Source: Candidatus Wolframiiraptor gerlachensis (GTDB taxonomy: Archaea; Thermoproteota; Nitrososphaeria_A; Caldarchaeales; Wolframiiraptoraceae). Taken from it: DNA of 64,000 nucleotides. Under the pieces are notes generated by a model that was not told the DNA's origin, did no database searches, and saw nothing but the letters and a program-made list of their open reading frames with translations. Positions 31,854 through 38,843 of this stretch are shown piece by piece. Positions within the stretch are counted from its first letter, which is position 1. Every line of letters starts with the position of its first letter. Made by a program: the position numbers and the translations under genes. The DNA lies in the NCBI GenBank assembly GCA_021323375.2, contig JAJPCT020000023.1, positions 35,803-99,802 of the forward strand, written 5' to 3'.

Positions 31854-32660
31854 CTATTGGCCAAGATCGCTCAGTGCATCCACGAACCCCTTTACGAGCC
31901 TCTCAACAGCCTTCTCAGGGCTCATTAGGCTCCTTTTTATCTCGGAAATGATCCTGCTCCCAGCTATAATGCCGTTGGCGCCAAGCTTAGCGAGCTCAAC
32001 CGCTTGATCCGGCCTTGAGACGCCGAAGCCCACCGCCACCGGCTTCTCAGGGTTTAGGCTCTTGCTCCTCCGGAGTAGCTGGATCGCTGTCGGTGGAAGG
32101 GACTCTCTCTCGCCCGTCGTCCCGGTGAGGGATACGAGGTATGCAAATCCCATAGTCTCGTCTAGGATTCTCGCGAGCCTCTCATCACTCGTCGTCGGCG
32201 CTGCTAAGAGCACCAGCGAGATGCCATGCTCCATGGCGACCCTCTTCACGGGGCCAGCCTCCTCGAGGGGTAGATCCGGTATAATTACTCCGCCGACTCC
32301 ATGTCTTGAGGCCTCCTCCATAAACCTCCTCAAGCCCATCCGATAGACGGGATTCAGATACGTCAAGATCACGATCGAGACATCATATCCCGATGAGACT
32401 TCCTTGGCAAGTTCTAGGACCTTCCGTGGGGTTGCCCCTGCCTGAAGAGCCTTGTAGGTCGCATCCTGTATCGTGACTCCATCCGCTATCGGGTCAGAGA
32501 ACGGTATTCCCAGCTCAATTATCTCCGCCCCGGCCTCTACCATCGCTTCAAGTATCCTTCTACACGTCTTCATGTCAGGGTATCCGCCTGTGATATATGG
32601 TATGAAGAGTGATCGGCCTATTCTCCTCGCTCGCCTAAACCTTTCCTCAATCCAATTCAT
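31854..32660 (-). CDS. trpA: Tryptophan synthase alpha chain
   Basis: [36 protein letters not shown]. Confidence 0.96.
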
Positions 32661-33847
32661 CTCCCAAGCCTCCTTAGGACTGTCTCGAGATCCTTGTCCC
32701 CCCTGCCCGAGAGATTCACAACTATTATCTCATCTCTCCCGATGTTCTCGGCGAGCTTCATCGCATACGCTAGTGCGTGGGCGGACTCGAGTGCTGGCAG
32801 AATCCCCTCAGTCCTCGATAATGCTAGGAATGCTTGGAGAGCCTCCTCATCAGTTACCGTGAAGTATTGGGCTCTCCCAATCTCCTTGAGGTAGGCGTGC
32901 TCCGGCCCGACCGCGGGGTAGTCTAGGCCGGCTGCTATGCTGTGTGTTCCAGCTATCTGCCCATCCTCATCCTGCAAGACATACGTTAGTGCGCCATGTA
33001 GAACCCCCTCGATACCTCTTACAAGCGATGCTGAGTGTTTTCCAAGATCCTCGCCCTCTCCGCCGGCCTCGACGCCGATCAGCTTGACCTCGCGATCCTC
33101 GATGAATGGGTGGAATATTCCTATCGCGTTGCTCCCACCGCCGACGCATGCTACGATGTAGTCTGGAAGCCTCCCCTCCTTCTCGAGAATCTGCCTCCTC
33201 GTCTCCACTCCTATAACAGACTGGAAATCCCGGACGATCATGGGATATGGATGTGGGCCGACACATGATCCAAGCAGATAATACGTCGTCTCGACATTCG
33301 TCACCCAGTCCCTTATCGCCTCGTTTATTGCGTCCTTTAGAGTCTTCGATCCGGATGAGACGGGGTGGACCTCGGCGCCGAGAAGCCTCATCCTCTGCAC
33401 GTTCATCTTCTGTCTCTCCATGTCTATCTCGCCCATGTAAATCTCGCATCTCAGGCCGAGGACTGCGCAAGCCATAGCGGTCGCGACACCATGCTGCCCG
33501 GCCCCAGTCTCAGCTATCACCCTACTCTTCCCCATCCGCTTGGCAAGCAGCCCCTGGCCCAGCGTGTTGTTTATCTTGTGAGCGCCCCCATGGAGCAGGT
33601 CCTCGCGCTTGAGATAGATCTTCGCCCCGCCCACCATCTTCGTGAGGTTCTCAGCATAGTAGAGCGGCGTCGGCCTGCCAGCATACTCCCTGAGCAGGTA
33701 GTCTAGCTCACGCCTGAAATCTAGGTCATCCCTCAGCCTGAGATAGCTCTCCTCGAGGTCGCTTAGCGCCTCCATCAGCGTCTCGGGGACATATCGCCCG
33801 CCGAACCTGCCAAACCTTCCACCACTCGTCGGAAAATTATATCTCAT
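32657..33847 (-). CDS. trpB: Tryptophan synthase beta chain (TrpB1)
   Basis: [47 protein letters not shown]; start MRYNF at 33847. Confidence 0.97.
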
Positions 33848-34451
33848 TAAGCTCCACCTCCCTAACCCTCCTAACAAACTCTCTTATCATGTGCGCGTCC
33901 TTTATCCCGGGAGATGACTCGACCCCGCTTGAGACATCAACACCATATGGCCTGACTATCCGGATCGCGTCCCGGATGTTCGATGGGCTGAGGCCTCCAG
34001 CCAGTATAACGGGAAGCCGAGACATTTCCCGGATCCTCCTGCATATATTCCAGTCGGGCTTCAAACCCCTCCCCATACTGCTGTCGAGAAGTATCGCGTC
34101 GAAGCCATCACAGTCTGGCGCCGCGTCAATATTTGCCTGAATGGGCTTGATAATCCACTTGGCTCCAAGCTCTCTTAGCTGATCCGGGTCAATATCACCA
34201 TATGCTTGGACGGCGTCGGGCCTTATCTCGCGGATAGCCCTAGTTAGCATATCGCGATCGCCTCCATCAACTACTAGGACTACATCGAGGAATGGCGGCG
34301 CCATCATCCTGAGAGTTTTCGCCCTCTCGATCGTGAGGTTTCTCGGTGATCTTGGGAAGCCCACTACTAGGCCCACCGCGTCGGCGCCATTTATGGCGGC
34401 TGCCATCAAATCCGCCTCACGCGTTATCCCACAGATCTTCACCCTAACCAT
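33837..34451 (-). CDS. trpF: Phosphoribosylanthranilate isomerase
   Basis: VKICGIT, LAGGL, DVSSGVE. Confidence 0.95.
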
Positions 34452-35229
34452 CGCCCAGAGCCCCCTTAAGCTCTCTTATCTTCGACGCGATGCTCCCAGA
34501 CCGCATGATAGAGGTGCCAACCAAGAACTTGCTCACGCCGAGCTCCGCGAATCTTCTCACATCGGATGCCGAGGTTATTCCACTCTCGAGAATTATCCGC
34601 TCACAATCGCCGCCATATGTCGCGATGATCTCATAAGCGCGGTCGAGGCTGAGGTCGAGTGTGTCGAGGTTCCTAGAATTCACCCCAAGGAAGTCCGCAT
34701 CATAATGGAGCGATGCTTTGAAGTCCTCTATCGTATAGGATTCGAGCAGGACCTCGAGCCCCATGCCGTGGGCGAGCTCTATCGCATCCCTCAGCTCGAG
34801 CTCCGTGTAGCCCCTCGAGAAGGCCGGGAATATTAGGAGTATTGCTGATGCGCCCGCCCTATGGGCGGCCTCTATCTGGACCTCAGAAACTATGAAGTCC
34901 TTCATCAGGATTGGGAGGCTTGTGATCTCTGAGGCCTCCGCGAGATATCCTATTGACCCGGAGAAGTTGTCGGGATCCGTTAGGATCGAGAGAGCATCAG
35001 CCCCAGCATTCCCCATCTCCATTACGAGGCTTACTGGATCCTGCTCCTCCCTAATCCAGCCCATGGATGGTGATCGGAGCTTCAGCTCGCATATCAGCGA
35101 GATCCCCGGCTTATCCAAGGCCTTAAGCATGCTCGGCCTCCTCACCGCCGCCCTGCATTCATCCAAGCTATAATACCCCTCTGCAACCCTTCTCCTCGCC
35201 TGGGCACATGCCTTCTCGAGAAAGCTCAT
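34444..35229 (-). CDS. trpC: Indole-3-glycerol phosphate synthase
   Basis: ELKLRSPS.G, SILTD..F.GS, PILMKDFI, GVNSRNL, ESGI. Confidence 0.93.
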   Translation of the reverse strand: MSFLEKACAQARRRVAEGYYSLDECRAAVRRPSMLKALDKPGISLICELKLRSPSMGWIREEQDPVSLVMEMGNAGADALSILTDPDNFSGSIGYLAEASEITSLPILMKDFIVSEVQIEAAHRAGASAILLIFPAFSRGYTELELRDAIELAHGMGLEVLLESYTIEDFKASLHYDADFLGVNSRNLDTLDLSLDRAYEIIATYGGDCERIILESGITSASDVRRFAELGVSKFLVGTSIMRSGSIASKIRELKGALGDG

Positions 35230-36293
35230 TCCACCACCCTCATCCATGACTCAAATCTATCTTGATCGCCGCCGGTCTCCTTCACGAGCCTCCTCAGCAG
35301 CTCGATCGGCTTCCCCGATTCTATCACGCGCCAAGCCATCTCCGCACCACCAGCCGGGTCATCAGCCAATCCGCCGACCATTAATGATAGCGATGAGTTC
35401 GCGAGGAGGAGCCTCGTTAATGGATGCCTTTTTCCGAGAGCCCCCGCCAAGGCCTCCAAGGTTCTTCTGATGCACTCATCCCTGCTTCCCACGATTACCT
35501 CTTCAACTCTTGCCTTCTCGAGCCTGAAGCTCTCAGGGCTGAGTATCACCCGCCTAGCCTCCCCATCCTTGATCCAGATCACCATAGTCTCGGAGAATAT
35601 TGATGCCTCATCTATCCCGCCATCCCCATGGATTATCGCGGCCTCCTCTCTTCCAAGTATTCTGACCGCCTCAGCCACGCGCTCTATGAACTCGCGGGAG
35701 AAGACCCCGAGAACCTGAGCATTTATTGGGGCCGGGTTTGTTAGGGGGCCCAGCAAGTTAAAGACCGTCCTTATGCCGATCTCCCTCCTCACGGGCATGA
35801 CATTCTTCATGGATTGATGATATCTCGGCGCGTAGATGAATCCAAAGCCCAGCGACTCGATGCACCTTGAAACCATGTCCGGCTCCAAGTCTATCCTCAC
35901 GCCGACCTCCTCAAGGAAGTCCGCGCTACCACAGTAGCCCGTGAATGATCTATTGCCGTGTTTTGCGACCCGGCATCCAGCCGCAGCGGCTACAAGCCCG
36001 GACGCCGTGCTGACGTTAATAGTCTTGACCAAGTCGCCTCCAGTCCCACACGTGTCTATCAGCCTTCCCCTCATGCGGCTTACCCGTATCGGCGTCGCAA
36101 ACCTTCTCATGATCTCTGACATGGCGGCTATTATTGCTGGATTTTCTCCCCGTATACGGAGGGCGGTGAGGAAGGCGGCGGCCTGAGCATGCGTCGCCTC
36201 ACCCCTCATCAGCTCCTCCATACATCTCGCCGCGAGTTCCGGCTCTATGCTCCCGCGCTCCACAAGCAGCCTTATCGCCTCAACTATGCTCAT
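35226..36293 (-). CDS. trpD: Anthranilate phosphoribosyltransferase
   Basis: DTCGTGGD, NVST, KHGNRS, RTVFNLLGPL.NP, DE. Confidence 0.96.
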   Translation of the reverse strand: MSIVEAIRLLVERGSIEPELAARCMEELMRGEATHAQAAAFLTALRIRGENPAIIAAMSEIMRRFATPIRVSRMRGRLIDTCGTGGDLVKTINVSTASGLVAAAAGCRVAKHGNRSFTGYCGSADFLEEVGVRIDLEPDMVSRCIESLGFGFIYAPRYHQSMKNVMPVRREIGIRTVFNLLGPLTNPAPINAQVLGVFSREFIERVAEAVRILGREEAAIIHGDGGIDEASIFSETMVIWIKDGEARRVILSPESFRLEKARVEEVIVGSRDECIRRTLEALAGALGKRHPLTRLLLANSSLSLMVGGLADDPAGGAEMAWRVIESGKPIELLRRLVKETGGDQDRFESWMRVVE

Positions 36294-36874
36294 ATCATTC
36301 CCTCCAAGAAGTTCCTGAGAATCTTGATCCCGCTAGTGGTTAGGATGGATTCGGGGTGGAACTGCACGCCCGCGATCGGCAGACTTCTATGCCTAACCCC
36401 CATGATCTCGCCATCATCGAGCGATCTCGCGGATATTTCGAGGCAGCCTGGCAGGCTCTCCTCATCGGCGACGAGCGAGTGATATCTCCCGGCCACGAAC
36501 GGGTTCTCGAGCCCCTCGAATATCCCCCTCCCATCATGGCTTATGGGGCTTGGCTTGCCATGCACGATCCTCCTCGCCCTAATCACCCTACCGCCAAACG
36601 CGTGGACTATCAGCTGATGGCCCAAGCATACCCCCAATATCGGCGTATCCCGCGAAAATCTCATTATAACATCCTCGCAGACCCCAGTATACTTTTTCTC
36701 TGATGGATGGCCGGGGCCCGGCGAGATTATGATCCTATCAGGATCAATCTCCTCAACCTCATTCAAGGTGATCCTTTTACTTCGCGCGACTATCGCCTCA
36801 GCTCCTAGCCTGCCAACATAGTCGGCGAGATTATAGACGAATGAGTCGAAATTGTCTAAGATTAGGACGCGCAT
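36290..36874 (-). CDS. trpG: Anthranilate synthase component II
   Basis: DNFDSFVYNL, SPGPG, GVCLGHQ, RYHSL, GVQFHPES. Confidence 0.96.
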   Translation of the reverse strand: MRVLILDNFDSFVYNLADYVGRLGAEAIVARSKRITLNEVEEIDPDRIIISPGPGHPSEKKYTGVCEDVIMRFSRDTPILGVCLGHQLIVHAFGGRVIRARRIVHGKPSPISHDGRGIFEGLENPFVAGRYHSLVADEESLPGCLEISARSLDDGEIMGVRHRSLPIAGVQFHPESILTTSGIKILRNFLEGMI

Positions 36875-38268
36875 CTCTCACCAGCCTCCTCTAATGCCCT
36901 CATAAGCGCCATCATCTTATGCTTGGTCTCCTTCCACTCCCGCTCCGGGATTGAGTCCCAGACGATGCCTGCGCCCGCCTGGATATAGGCTAGGCGCGAT
37001 CTCCTGATCAGAGTCCTTATTGTGATCGCAAAGTCACAGCAGCTATTCAGCGAGAAGTATCCAATCGCCCCTGCATATGGGCCTCTCCTGACGGGCTCGA
37101 GCTCCTCTATTACCTCCATCGCCCTAGGCTTTGGCGCCCCCGAGACTGTTCCAGCCGGGAAGACGGCCTTGAAGGCATCATACATCGTGGCTCCACCTCT
37201 CAGCCTTGCCTTAACCCTTGAGACGATGTGCTTAACGTGGCTATACTTGACTAGGGTCATGAAGTCCTTCACCTCGACTGATCCGGGCTCCGCGATCTTA
37301 GCGAGATCATTCCTAGCGAGATCGACGAGCATAACATGTTCCGCCCTCTCCTTCTCATCGGAGAGAAGCTCGTGGTCGGATTCCTCCTCCAACCTCGGAT
37401 CATTCATCCTCGGCCTAGTCCCGGCTATTGGGAACGTCTCAACCCTGACGCCCTCAACCCTAACCAGCATCTCGGGGCTCGCTCCAACAATCTCATCATC
37501 CCCGAGCCTGAAATAATACATGTAAGGTGATGGATTAAGATCGCGAAGCCTGAGATAGAATGGGAGCAGGTCGCCCTTGATCTCGAACTCGAGCCTCCGT
37601 GAGAGAACTACTTGGAAAATGTCGCCGCGCTCGATATACTTCTTTCCAGCCTCCACGATGCCCATGAACTCGTCCATGCTCATATTGCTCCTCGGGCTGG
37701 TGTATCTGAGACGATGATTGGCGGATGGTGGCCCAGCATCTTTTAGAACCCTCTTGACATTATCCAGCCTGCCATCTCCAGCGCATGAGCAGTAATAATA
37801 CGTCCTCCTCCCATGATCATAGATCAGCACATCCTCGAATAAGCCGAACTTCATGAGCGGGAAGATATTGCTTGGCTTCTCGCGCGATCGGATATCCTCC
37901 CAGAGGAATGAGGCCTCATACGAGACATAGCCTACAAGGCCACCGACAAAGCGGGGCGAGGAAGGGGCGCCCGCGATCGGCCGGGTTAGGCTTCTCAGCA
38001 GATCTAGTGGATCACCCTCTACTTCGCTAACAGAACCATGCTCATGAATTCTCGAGAACCCCTCATAACACTCGATGATGAGCTTGGGGTCGAAGCCGAT
38101 GAAGCTGTATTCAGCGAGCCTCTTGGGGCCTGTTAGAGATTCCAAGAGAAAGGCATCCCGCCAAGCAGCCCTTATGGCCCCGAAAACCTGGAGGGGGGTA
38201 AGCCCAAGATCAAGCCTTATAAGCCTAAGCCGTCTCTCAGCATGATATTCAGAGCCAAAGATAGCCAC
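36862..38268 (-). CDS. trpE: Anthranilate synthase component I (N-terminus possibly supplied by +1 frameshift from the uORF at 38275)
   Basis: FLLES, GDIFQVVLS, NPSPY, PIAGTR, KERAEH.MLVDLARND, FPAGTVSGAPK, QAGAGIV. Confidence 0.96.
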   Translation of the reverse strand: MAIFGSEYHAERRLRLIRLDLGLTPLQVFGAIRAAWRDAFLLESLTGPKRLAEYSFIGFDPKLIIECYEGFSRIHEHGSVSEVEGDPLDLLRSLTRPIAGAPSSPRFVGGLVGYVSYEASFLWEDIRSREKPSNIFPLMKFGLFEDVLIYDHGRRTYYYCSCAGDGRLDNVKRVLKDAGPPSANHRLRYTSPRSNMSMDEFMGIVEAGKKYIERGDIFQVVLSRRLEFEIKGDLLPFYLRLRDLNPSPYMYYFRLGDDEIVGASPEMLVRVEGVRVETFPIAGTRPRMNDPRLEEESDHELLSDEKERAEHVMLVDLARNDLAKIAEPGSVEVKDFMTLVKYSHVKHIVSRVKARLRGGATMYDAFKAVFPAGTVSGAPKPRAMEVIEELEPVRRGPYAGAIGYFSLNSCCDFAITIRTLIRRSRLAYIQAGAGIVWDSIPEREWKETKHKMMALMRALEEAGERCAS

Positions 38269-38275
38269 CGTTCAT
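38249..38275 (-). CDS. Leaderless uORF MNGGYLWL overlapping the trpE start; candidate Trp-sensing +1 frameshift cassette
   Basis: ATG AAC GGT GGC TAT CTT TGG CTC TGA; the A of ATG lies 30 nt after the first T of TTTATATT; the +1 frame at CTT-TGG (TTT GGC TCT GAA) is trpE. Confidence 0.6.
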   Translation of the reverse strand: MNGGYLWL

Positions 38276-38313
38276 GCAAGATATGCATTAGTGCATAAAT
38301 ATAAACTTTGGTG
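38275..38313 (-). promoter_or_regulatory. trp operon promoter (BRE + TATA) with TGCA repeats between TATA and TSS
   Basis: CACCAAAG-TTTATATTTAT (TATA 38305-38295); TGCA at 38275, 38284 and 38292, including the inverted repeat ATGCA-N4-TGCAT. Confidence 0.7.
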
Positions 38314-38474
38314 TTCAAAAAAGATCATTATACCGCGGCCCCGAAACAGCCTGAAGAGGTGTATAAGATGCTAGCAAGGTGGAGCCAGAAGCCGCTATAG
38401 GCATATTTCAAAGGAATAATTACGCCAATACTGGAGATAAAAGGCTAAATCAGGTGCATGTATATTATTGTGCA

Positions 38475-38843
38475 ATGTTGGATGGCGGGGAGGCGTGGGG
38501 ACGGGGTGATCTTCGGGAAGCTCTCAGGGCGATCCTTGAGACGATCTTGGGGAGGAGCTGTTTCACGGCTCTAAATTTTCATCTTAGGAAGGCTTTGGGC
38601 GAGGACCCTATTACGGCATTCTTGAGGAGGCCTAGGGACTTTTATCAGGCTTTATCCGCCTTCTTCGGCGAGAGCGGGGCGGCGGTAACCTTCAAGATAA
38701 TATGTGGTAGACTGATCCTTCTTAGCGGGTCCGAGGAATTGACCCCAGACGATGTTTACAATCTCTTGATGAGAGATGAGAATGCTGCTAGAAGAGTGAT
38801 AATCGAGATGCTTGAAAAGCTAGTGGGGGAGAAGATACGGTAG
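38475..38843 (+). CDS. Small helical hypothetical protein (NitrOD5/DUF3227-like)
   Basis: Pattern L..ILG......L..HL.......P.......P..F...L..FFG..GA; probable start ATG at 38475 downstream of an AT-rich box. Confidence 0.55.
   Translation: MLDGGEAWGRGDLREALRAILETILGRSCFTALNFHLRKALGEDPITAFLRRPRDFYQALSAFFGESGAAVTFKIICGRLILLSGSEELTPDDVYNLLMRDENAARRVIIEMLEKLVGEKIR

Follow-up and report, generated by a model that had tools for sequence, protein, structure and literature searches.

A predicted +1 frameshift cassette with a tryptophan codon at the 5′ end of archaeal trp operons

Introduction

How does a ribosome reach trpE when the start codon at the predicted 5′ end of its mRNA opens a different reading frame, and does it matter that this short frame holds a tryptophan codon? 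The question arises on the minus strand of the window analysed here, a 64,000-nucleotide stretch of DNA from Candidatus Wolframiiraptor gerlachensis. To our knowledge, the control of amino-acid biosynthesis is largely unknown in most archaea, and attenuation of the bacterial style has not been found there. Frameshifting at ‘hungry’ codons was recognised decades ago, as an error. The question of a natural use for such shifting is posed as an open point in the portion of a 2016 review that was available to us (PMC5009743), and a 2021 review, likewise available in part, gives a −1 shift in Saccharolobus as the only programmed frameshift reported in archaeal cells (PMC8211752).

The reading that we favour, to which we assign a probability of roughly 0.7, is that ribosomes shift by +1 into trpE when a UGG codon awaits Trp-tRNA, the site acting as an amino-acid sensor akin to the RF2 and Ty1 frameshifts. 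There is no experimental evidence for it: the shift, its dependence on tryptophan and the transcription start site are inferred.

Results

The trp operon of the window begins with a short ORF out of frame with trpE

The operon is encoded on the minus strand. Its first gene, trpE (36862–38268), specifies anthranilate synthase component I, with Pfam matches to Chorismate_bind (PF00425, 9.8e-93) and Anth_synt_I_N (PF04715, 6.5e-26). It is followed by trpG, trpD, trpC, trpF, trpB and trpA (31854–36874; GATase, Glycos_transf_3, IGPS, PRAI, PALP and Trp_syntA), each gene abutting or overlapping its predecessor; the Pfam domains of all seven genes agree with the order trpEGDCFBA given in the first-pass annotation of this DNA.

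Upstream of trpE lies a TATA box (TTTATATT, 38298–38305), whose role as the trp promoter is inferred and whose first T (38305) is 30 nt from the A of an ATG (38275–38273). From this spacing only, and without RNA data, we predict that transcription starts at or next to ATG 38275. The ATG opens a short leaderless-type ORF (38249–38275; ATG AAC GGT GGC TAT CTT TGG CTC TGA, encoding MNGGYLWL), hereafter the uORF or zero frame, which overlaps trpE and carries a single UGG, at codon 7, directly ahead of trpEGDCFBA. This codon is part of a heptamer, C_UUU_GGC (38254–38260), read in the zero frame as CUU UGG C. In the proposed shift CUU (Leu, 38260–38258) would occupy the P site and UGG (Trp, 38257–38255) the A site, and C 38254 completes the +1 codon GGC (Gly). 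The E-site codon would be UAU (38261–38263), an SD-like GGUGG (GGTGG, 38265–38269) stands 4 nt 5′ of the P-site codon, and the zero frame closes at a UGA (38249–38251) two codons past UGG.

The trpE gene occupies the +1 frame relative to the uORF, and its ORF opens past a TGA (38272–38274) that overlaps the uORF start codon (ATGA). The only canonical trpE start is an in-frame GTG (38266–38268), a rival or auxiliary start located 7 nt from the A of the uORF ATG, the predicted 5′ end; upstream of the Anth_synt_I_N domain, which begins at residue 23, the trpE frame contains no other ATG, GTG or TTG. Re-reading of the minus strand thus recovered the TATA box, ATG 38275, MNGGYLWL and CUU-UGG-C at the positions assigned to them in the first-pass annotation, and ORF inspection bore out both its frame assignment and its view of the GTG as the lone in-frame start. 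A divergent small ORF upstream of the block has a sub-threshold match to NitrOD output domains.

The cassette recurs across the phylum with an invariant TTTGG

We surveyed a 301-genome sample of the phylum together with 80 named loci. The same design, a short ORF ending in NTT-TGG with trpE in the +1 frame, was present at 68 of the 79 trpE 5′ ends examined in the phylum; per-cassette counts of codons, frames, starts and SD energies are based on 67 cassettes. Since the loci are mutually related and some were hand-picked by family, locus counts overstate independence. Named carriers are Ca. Wolframiiraptor allenii, four Bathyarchaeia MAGs and one Nitrosopumilaceae MAG, and the cassette is therefore found in three named archaeal groups: Ca. 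Wolframiiraptor, Bathyarchaeia and Nitrosopumilaceae. The class of the window genome contains only its own order, and a class-level search added nothing. The original proposal had named its own test, namely that relatives retain ATG-N(n)-CTT-TGG with the uORF placed in the −1 frame relative to trpE; the outcome was strongly positive and far wider than the genus, and in the absence of experimental data the overall interpretation is supported by these sequence comparisons.

Outside this range, none of 73 loci from other taxa or sets (65 bacterial, seven from other archaea and one from a Nitrosopumilus MAG) contained the cassette. All 11 phylum loci without it have an ordinary in-frame trpE start, and at locus L091 it is replaced by an in-frame ATG 4 nt further on. 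In the Thermoproteia-like families f12, f18, f19, f24, f30 and f37 no trpE cassette was found at the seven usable loci among L072–L079 (L076 gave no match), nor was one found on gene starts in the roughly 8 kb preceding trpE in 12 genomes, the one match being internal to a gene. A loose scan of the window genome for comparable cassettes, which required a TATA box ahead of an ATG, a short ORF in the zero frame and a long one in the +1 frame, gave 15 matches and revealed no other amino-acid codon in the role of sensor. Three of the matches lack an early in-frame start and proved to be false positives on inspection; only trpE stands out.

Within the cassettes TTTGG is invariant, and the A-site codon is UGG in 67/67. 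The Phe codon at the site is likewise TTT in every cassette, compared with 490 TTT and 715 TTC in the same trpE ORFs; the window trpE has 3 TTT and 18 TTC. This pattern suggests that UGG is kept by selection at the nucleotide level, against the preference for TTC. The P-site codon is always NUU (CTT 35, GTT 24, ATT 5 and TTT 3), which means that two or three base pairs can re-form on UUU; GUU and AUU, together 29 of the 67, leave a first-position mismatch after the slip. Across lineages the E-site codon is mostly Y-R-Y (TAT, TGT, CAT, CGT or CAC), and the base 3′ of TGG is C in 41 of 67 cassettes. The element spans 22 nt and the starter ORF 4–9 codons, with the zero-frame stop of relatives 1 to 20 codons beyond TGG. 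Mean pairwise identity of the cassette is 0.91, 0.83 and 0.82 in three clades as against 0.42–0.62 over the next 60 nt, so that on alignment it appears as an island of conservation.

The course of events that we propose for the window is as follows. The 5′ end of the trp mRNA would lie at or next to ATG 38275, where ribosomes would start and decode Met-Asn-Gly-Gly-Tyr-Leu. This would leave peptidyl-tRNA-Leu(GAG) on CUU in the P site and bring the sole codon for Trp, UGG, into the A site. When charged tRNA-Trp is plentiful, UGG would be decoded, translation would stop at the UGA two codons on and no TrpE would be made; the tightly overlapping downstream trp genes would probably be silent too, a polarity that is again inferred. 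When charged tRNA-Trp is scarce, the A site would remain empty and the Leu-tRNA would slip by one base, from CUU to UUU, aided by pairing of the SD-like GGUGG with the 16S rRNA tail. Gly-tRNA would then take GGC, and translation would continue in the trpE frame to give MNGGYL-GSEYHAERR... The cassette would thus be both sensor and effector of tryptophan supply, like the bacterial RF2 frameshift with an amino-acid codon replacing the stop. We also lean towards the view that this is an ancient +1 frameshift, predating the split of the ammonia-oxidising Nitrososphaeria, the Bathyarchaeia and the Wolframiiraptor lineage, and that it is the main tryptophan sensor in these groups, an empty A site on UGG and a slip on NUU_U fusing the starter ORF to TrpE.

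A +1 shift could be real and needed for TrpE without reporting on tryptophan at all, being constitutive and either setting a fixed low translation rate or persisting as a frozen accident. The frame logic demands a shift and is silent on regulation, the cassette has one Trp codon only and no run of them as in bacterial leaders, and, according to the part of PMC5009743 available to us, an SD-like stimulator and a slippery NUU_U can by themselves yield substantial shifting. However, other slow codons, or a stop, would serve at a constitutive site, whereas UGG stands in 67/67 cassettes across the three named groups despite the TTC preference. The cassette also precedes the first gene of the Trp pathway, with no comparable cassette revealed elsewhere in the window genome by the loose scan. 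We consider a shift without tryptophan sensing unlikely, while keeping it in view.

Many loci leave no standard route to TrpE other than a shift

The upstream ATG is in the TGG frame in 59 of 67 cassettes, with four in each of the other two frames; as a chance control, a frame-matched ATG lies upstream of in-frame TTT-GG at 12 of 214 sites (5.6%) in the window genome. Eight cassettes have TTG as their first codon, with 5′ ends that are unclear. For 35 of 67 cassettes the trpE frame offers no ATG, GTG or TTG up to and including TTT, and for 22 of 67 it offers none even to 20 codons past TTT. At 11 loci a stop lies directly 5′ of TTT, so that the +1 frame opens exactly at TTT, and at four loci a zero-frame stop follows right after TGG. 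Taken together, these stops pin any shift to NUU_UGG. As far as can be judged from the frames, a +1 shift at NUU_UGG would be the only standard route to TrpE in lineages that lack an in-frame start or have flanking stops.

The window belongs to the 32 of 67 cassettes that possess a canonical in-frame start of some kind no later than TTT, and because the in-frame GTG is retained, a second, unshifted route to TrpE cannot be excluded for the window and these other loci. The window organism might even do without a frameshift, with TrpE made from GTG 38268 on a leaderless or near-leaderless mRNA and the ATG-to-TGA ORF incidental or a small decoy. A GTG occurs here and in about half of the cassettes, and in every sampled locus of the Nitrosopumilaceae-like family f5 it lies within GGTGG or GGTGA. 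Loci L045 and L062 retain the ATGA...GTGGCT geometry, have lost TTTGG and have the TATA box 4–5 nt closer; they presumably use exactly this GTG as their trpE start. In the Wolframiiraptor genus, furthermore, the codon that varies just ahead of CTT shows non-conservative substitutions when read in the zero frame (Y/C/H/R) and conservative ones in the trpE frame (I/V/A), which would fit translation from the GTG.

Against a GTG start, the TATA spacing puts the 5′ end at the ATG, the GTG being 37 nt from the start of the TATA box, and the invariant TTT, the frame-locked ATG and the island of conservation would remain unexplained. Such a start is also impossible in the 35 cassettes without an in-frame start and in the 11 with a stop directly before TTT, among them L082, where an in-frame GTG is followed by a stop. 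Some of the excluded loci are relatives of the window, belonging to the same genus (L005) or the same family (L015 and L017). We therefore regard initiation at the GTG alone as improbable and retain the +1 shift as the preferred reading for the window as well.

Several other routes were considered. Transcriptional slippage was rejected, as the window site has no homopolymer longer than 3, and so was a TnaC-like arrest peptide, with just 4–9 residues up to W. Two points speak against termination-reinitiation, which was likewise rejected: many loci offer no start codon after the uORF stop, and conservation in the trpE frame already sets in at TTT, ahead of the stops. A shift with UGG in the P site is less likely, given that the next codon is not conserved and that the conservation of NUU would go unexplained.

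The position of the block is tied to the start codon

Both in the Nitrosopumilaceae-like family f5 and in the genus Wolframiiraptor, the TATA box lies 30–31 nt upstream of the ATG. For the Bathyarchaeia group the distance is 44–54 nt, and an SD precedes the ATG. Judging from TATA spacing and SD placement, the upstream ATG is a real start site. The conserved block might nevertheless be a DNA element at the transcription start, for instance an initiator or an operator for a Trp-responsive regulator, with the small ORF as a by-product: it overlaps the predicted start site in the leaderless lineages, and the divergent small ORF with its weak NitrOD similarity could be counted in favour. In the Bathyarchaeia group, however, the block is found 15–24 nt downstream of the predicted start site, behind the SD, from which it follows that its position is tied to the start codon and not to the promoter. 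An ATG in the TGG frame, flanking stops and missing trpE starts are likewise not what would be expected of an operator, and we give a DNA element very little credence.

That the offset stems from an indel of assembly or sequencing, or marks a pseudogene in decay, can be dismissed almost outright. The genome is a MAG of 27 contigs and 89% completeness, and in the relative L020 an intact cassette is followed by what a deletion has left of the trp operon. However, contigs from four metagenome runs of four studies (one of them, X5, may be the source) cover 38000–38500 with no inserted or missing letters, and thus give no sign of the indel, named in the first-pass annotation as a refutation, that would put ATG 38275 in frame with trpE. 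The same one-base offset also recurs in 68 loci of many genomes, and trpEGDCFBA is intact with strong Pfam scores.

The first-pass annotation had also pointed to the SD-like GGUGG. Its position 4 nt before the P codon stands, whereas its strength in the window's genus is moderate to weak: the duplex with the anti-SD of the 16S rRNA 3′ end (...GGATCACCTCCT in the window genome) has an energy of −6.5 kcal/mol, at about the 20th percentile of windows from the own ORFs in the Wolframiiraptor genus. In most other lineages the element is strong. In 47 of 67 cassettes the 14 nt ahead of the P codon rank, for their pairing with the anti-SD, at or below the 5th percentile of same-ORF windows, and among the 50 cassettes with an exact match of at least 4 nt, 49 have a constant SD register (0–1 nt).

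The tRNAs found in the window genome include Leu(GAG), Trp(CCA), Gly(GCC), Val(GAC) and Phe(GAA); a single, intron-containing tRNA-Trp(CCA) gene was found in this 89%-complete MAG. No stable or terminator-like RNA structure was detected in 38275–38150 (z = 0.25 versus shuffles), and seven representative loci had no match to Rfam families at E values up to 0.1.

Discussion

The bacterial prfB cassette reads AGG GGG UAU CUU UGA C, and the first-pass annotation had likened the window site to it. The parallel holds for the CUU_U site and for the +1 offset of the overlapping ORFs. The SD-like element stands at a comparable position but is weak in the window's genus, and the window keeps an in-frame start, which 35 of 67 related cassettes lack. 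The parallel fails at the A-site UGA, which is UGG in 67/67 cassettes, and for this reason the archaeal cassette would work like RF2 without being a member of the RF2 family. As far as the available part of PMC5009743 describes it, the zero frame of RF2 is a short ORF and the functional protein is encoded in the +1 frame; the CUU_U site re-pairs with a G:U at the first position, an SD-like stimulator lies a few nucleotides upstream, a C follows the A-site codon, and the product, by accelerating A-site decoding, switches off its own synthesis. The proposed archaeal design would be similar in these respects, with the reservations just given for the SD-like element and the in-frame start. Unlike RF2, where a stop awaits a release factor, the archaeal A site holds a sense UGG awaiting an aminoacyl-tRNA. 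The shift would occur in Archaea at codon 6–7 of a probably leaderless mRNA, in contrast to codon 26 in RF2, any NUU is accepted in the P site, and the regulated output is a biosynthetic enzyme and its operon.

The heptamer differs by one base from that of Ty1 and ABP140 (CUU_UGG_C versus CUU_AGG_C) and shares with it the +1 codon GGC and an A-site sense codon whose decoding would be slow, so that a Ty1-type pattern, CUU_NGG_C with GGC as the +1 codon, is satisfied at 38260–38254. The Ty1 site alone, with its slowly read codon, gives about 40% shifting in yeast, according to the accessible part of the same review (PMC5009743). Ty1, however, relies on a constitutively rare tRNA-Arg to make two products in a fixed ratio, whereas in the archaeal case amino-acid supply would set the pace of the slow step, and the short peptide made in the zero frame would simply be discarded. 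In the +1 shift of antizyme, as presented in the portion of PMC8211752 available to us, one frameshift serves a metabolite feedback loop as sensor and effector alike, as proposed here. Antizyme differs in being eukaryotic, in having a stop in the A site and in sensing polyamines directly, and its sign is opposite, a high metabolite level turning the shift on.

In the trpL leader, cognate codons within a 5′ short ORF control the operon by attenuation. With trpL and pheL attenuation and with the Cys-responsive leaderless short ORFs of mycobacteria (bioRxiv 10.1101/834739, available in part), the archaeal cassette shares a 5′ short ORF bearing the pathway's own amino-acid codon or codons and, as we propose, the principle that ribosome speed on cognate codons sets operon output. 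Those leaders act through alternative hairpins and transcription termination, or through coupling, while here the leader is fused to the output gene by a change of frame. Of the features of attenuation, the cognate-codon short ORF at the operon 5′ end is thus present, and alternative terminator and antiterminator structures are not (z = 0.25, no Rfam match). Frameshifting in the pheL leader is described as incidental in what was available of PMC5009743. In human cells, a shortage of tryptophan leads ribosomes to shift frame at Trp codons, going by the accessible parts of PMC13751296 and PMC8942854. There too a hungry UGG provokes the shift, but as an error process over many genes and not at one selected, conserved regulatory site.

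No description of frameshifting in trpE or anthranilate synthase was found in the literature by full-text search (including PMC5009743, PMC3711429 and PMC8211752, each available in part), supplementary predicted-gene lists such as those of PMC3711429 not being covered; with that reservation, the earlier remark that no frameshift-based trp regulation is described in archaea remains valid. If the proposed mechanism is true, Archaea would have their first cellular +1 programmed frameshift, an amino-acid biosynthesis operon would for the first time be found under frameshift control, and hungry-codon shifting would have a natural, selected use; one 22-nt element would answer both how archaea may regulate amino-acid biosynthesis and whether such shifting is put to natural use. 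The cassette is directly testable because the same element is present in ammonia-oxidising archaea, a group with members in culture. For about half of the carriers no trpE start can be annotated, and gene callers must therefore truncate or mis-start trpE in these genomes; pathway reconstructions for Bathyarchaeia and relatives may wrongly flag the gene as broken.

A short ORF with a Trp codon overlaps the start of trpE

The tryptophan operon of the window lies on the minus strand behind a TATA box, TTTATATT (38305-38298), which is followed by the small ORF ATG AAC GGT GGC TAT CTT TGG CTC TGA (38275-38249). The ATG (38275-38273) is located 30 nt downstream of the first T of the TATA box, a distance that fits archaeal TATA-to-start spacing with transcription starting at or next to the A of the ATG; from this spacing we infer a trp transcription start at or adjoining that A, the start itself being unmeasured. 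The trpE ORF (36862-38268) is offset from the small ORF by +1 and encodes anthranilate synthase component I (Chorismate_bind, 9.8e-93; Anth_synt_I_N, 6.5e-26). Its frame is closed upstream by a TGA that overlaps the ATG, and its sole canonical start in the window is GTG 38268, which the predicted 5′ end precedes by 7 nt. Downstream follow trpG, D, C, F, B and A, every gene overlapping or abutting its predecessor. The first-pass annotation, made from sequence alone, had described this locus base-accurately.

Upstream of the trp promoter lies a divergent small ORF (38379-38843, plus strand; start probably ATG 38475) with no more than sub-threshold matches to the output domains NitrOD2 (E 0.0025; 18.4 bits, cutoff 25) and NitrOD5. 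It may encode a regulator.

We propose that translation would begin at the ATG of the small ORF and that, once Leu-tRNA occupies CUU and the A site holds UGG, the speed of Trp-tRNA arrival would decide the outcome. Fast arrival would lead to reading of UGG, a stop at UGA and release of an octapeptide; upon slow arrival the P-site tRNA would slip to UUU, GGC would be read and TrpE made as MNGGYL-GSEY..., with the overlapping downstream trp genes probably following through coupling. An RF2-like frameshift at this Trp codon was the interpretation of the first-pass annotation, and the comparative evidence supports it; without experimental data, we put the probability of a Trp-sensing +1 frameshift before trpE at about 0.72. 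The scheme builds on observed anatomy, conservation and frame logic, while the transcription start, the shift, its dependence on Trp and polarity, which the first-pass annotation had tentatively ascribed to FttA-mediated termination, are inferred; a +1 shift that is constitutive, and so lacks this dependence, we consider unlikely.

Relationship to known systems

The cassette, that is, the short ORF ending in NTT-TGG that overlaps trpE, resembles that of RF2 in its CUU_U site, a putative SD-like stimulator that is weaker in the window's genus, the C after the A-site codon and its proposed autoregulatory logic (PMC5009743). However, the stop codon that defines the RF2 cassette is a sense codon here, and the trpE cassette is therefore not a member of that group. 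Its heptamer is one base from the CUU_AGG_C of Ty1, for which the same review gives a shift of ~40% on a slow sense codon (PMC5009743). Bacterial leader-peptide attenuation follows a similar logic, but the trpE cassette is without the RNA switch. In human cells short of Trp, frameshifting at Trp codons is a known error (PMC13751296, PMC8942854). A full-text literature search found no description of the cassette, and trpE, anthranilate and tryptophan are not mentioned in this sense in the accessible parts of a 2016 frameshifting review (PMC5009743), the 2013 GeneTack survey (PMC3711429; supplementary gene lists outside scope) or a 2021 review of recoding in Archaea (PMC8211752). According to the last of these, no programmed frameshift other than a single -1 event has been reported from archaeal cells. 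The proposed mechanism would amount to autoregulatory +1 frameshifting with a Trp sense codon in place of the stop.

The cassette is conserved in relatives

Searches for trpE gave a match in 20 of 41 relatives, in 37 of the 76 genomes of the whole order and in 175 of a 301-genome phylum sample; at class level they reached the same order only and nothing beyond. We compared every match within the order (loci L001-L040), the top-scoring matches in the rest of the phylum (L041-L062) and loci hand-picked by family from the phylum matches (L063-L082). Three of the 82 were left out, two cut by contig ends (L007, L016) and one without an N-terminal hit (L076), leaving 79. All counts are limited by the loci being phylogenetically non-independent and chosen partly by the analyst.

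The same design, frame offset included, is kept in 68 of the 79 trpE 5′ ends (67 distinct sequences): a short ORF leads up to NTT-TGG, while the trpE frame, displaced by one base, has TTT-GGN. Conservation in relatives had been left to be checked in the first-pass annotation, and the cassette is, judging by these 5′ ends, spread far more broadly than was known there. It forms an island of conservation, with mean pairwise identities of 0.91, 0.83 and 0.82 for three clades, versus 0.42-0.62 in the next 60 nt and 0.33-0.64 in the upstream spacer. Among named genomes, a Candidatus Wolframiiraptor allenii MAG (NCBI lineage Nitrososphaerota, Ca. Wolframiiraptoraceae) comes closest, with 88% TrpE identity. 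In a separate scan of 80 named loci the cassette was present in seven (two Wolframiiraptor-like, four Bathyarchaeia, one Nitrosopumilaceae), whereas 73 lacked it (65 bacterial, seven other archaea and one Nitrosopumilus MAG). The cassettes of family f5 match that of the named Nitrosopumilaceae MAG.

Genome G013 carries two TrpE-like genes, one with the cassette (L009) and one without, which has its own TATA box and an ordinary ATG (L021). In L020 (G003, same genus as the window; oriented coordinates about 1490-1700) no more than ~45 TrpE residues remain behind the intact promoter and cassette, fused to an apparent TrpA C-terminal end, the remnant of a large trp operon deletion. Four f5 loci (L063, L064, L066, L069) have a ~27-nt block with a GGTACC palindrome about 60-130 nt upstream of the trpE TATA box; it is almost identical in four genera, has no Rfam match and could represent either a regulator site or part of a neighbouring gene, namely its end.

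The proposed shift site

At 11 loci a stop immediately precedes TTT, so that the +1 frame opens exactly there, and at four the short ORF has a stop immediately after TGG; the pair NUU UGG is thus the only place for a shift compatible with all of them. The P codon is CTT in 35 cassettes, GTT in 24, ATT in five and TTT in three. Since it is always NUU, re-pairing on UUU is possible at positions 2 and 3 and, for Leu (G:U) and Phe, also at position 1; GUU and AUU leave a mismatch there after the slip, a point against the shift. The window's genome encodes Leu(GAG), Val(GAC), Phe(GAA), Gly(GCC) and one Trp(CCA) tRNA. The Phe codon at the site is TTT in 67/67 cassettes, against 490 TTT and 715 TTC in the same trpE ORFs overall and 3 versus 18 in the trpE of the window. 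The naive product of per-gene frequencies is 10^-29.5, which is not a true probability because the loci are related. As read from codon usage, retention of the U shared by UUU and UGG against codon preference shows selection on the nucleotide.

Evidence for the proposed SD-like stimulator is weaker in the genus of the window than in most cassettes. Pairing of the 16S tail (in the window's genome ...GGATCACCTCCT) with the 14 nt that precede the P codon has a median energy of -8.4 kcal/mol and in 47/67 cassettes ranks no higher than the 5th percentile of same-ORF windows. Of the 50 cassettes with an exact match of at least 4 nt, 49 share a constant register; the GGUGG match of the window's genus reaches only about the 20th percentile. 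The window cassette has no stable downstream structure (z = 0.25), and no Rfam family matched in seven representative loci.

Many loci lack a start in the trpE frame

An in-frame GTG is retained in the window, and TrpE could simply start there without any frameshift. Some in-frame start lies at or before TTT in 32/67 cassettes, and within the genus the codon before CTT varies as Y/C/H/R in the short-ORF frame versus I/V/A in the trpE frame, which would suit translation from the GTG. In 35/67 cassettes, however, the trpE frame contains no ATG, GTG or TTG up to and including the TTT, and in 22/67 none even to 20 codons past it, already within the conserved N-terminal domain. Close relatives are among the loci without a start, namely L005 (same genus, GTG to GCG) and L015/L017 (same family); we consider a plain GTG start in this organism quite improbable. 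In L082 a stop follows two codons after the in-frame GTG. An ordinary in-frame start is present at 11/11 loci without the cassette.

Two f9 loci, L045 and L062 (around locus positions 1380-1420), retain the ATGA...GTGGCT geometry without TTTGG; their TATA box is 4-5 nt closer and their short-ORF frame has no Trp codon. Judged from this arrangement, trpE probably starts at the GTG in both, an apparent use of that codon after TTTGG loss that speaks for the plain start. Just upstream of match position 1501 in L091, a Nitrosopumilus sp. MAG from the named-genome scan, TTTGG is lost, the original ATG still follows the TATA box, and a second ATG, 4 nt downstream of the old one, is in frame with trpE. 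The cassette has decayed here, apparently in a natural return to ordinary initiation.

Initiation signals of the short ORF

An ATG at most 27 nt upstream of TGG is in the TGG frame in 59/67 cassettes and in each other frame in four; such an ATG is found at 12/214 control sites (in-frame TTT-GG inside long ORFs of the window's genome). The initiation signals vary by lineage: in Wolframiiraptor and family f5 a TATA box lies 30-31 nt upstream of the ATG without an SD, and in the Bathyarchaeia group it lies 44-54 nt upstream, with an SD before the ATG (duplex -6 to -10 kcal/mol). The conserved block is consequently tied to the start codon and not to the promoter, and that it is a DNA operator is very unlikely, since it moves with the former.

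Eight cassettes have TTG as the small-ORF start, which counts against the proposal. In the f2/g6 loci L011-L014, L028, L029 and L035 the short ORF begins with TTG, 1-2 nt past a GAGG and 33-37 nt past a TATA box; the mode and site of initiation are unclear.

The frame offset in independent assemblies

An artefactual offset, the inserted or missing letter that could have refuted the proposal, is practically ruled out, as contigs from four metagenome runs, each of a different study and one of them near-identical to the window and possibly its source, cover 38000-38500 without an indel. A co-occurring strain in two hot-spring metagenomes (X4 and X8) differs from the window by substitutions only: TAT to TGT (38262) at the codon preceding CTT, as in the sister genome L002, and several in the promoter spacer (38277-38298), with the cassette frame unaltered.
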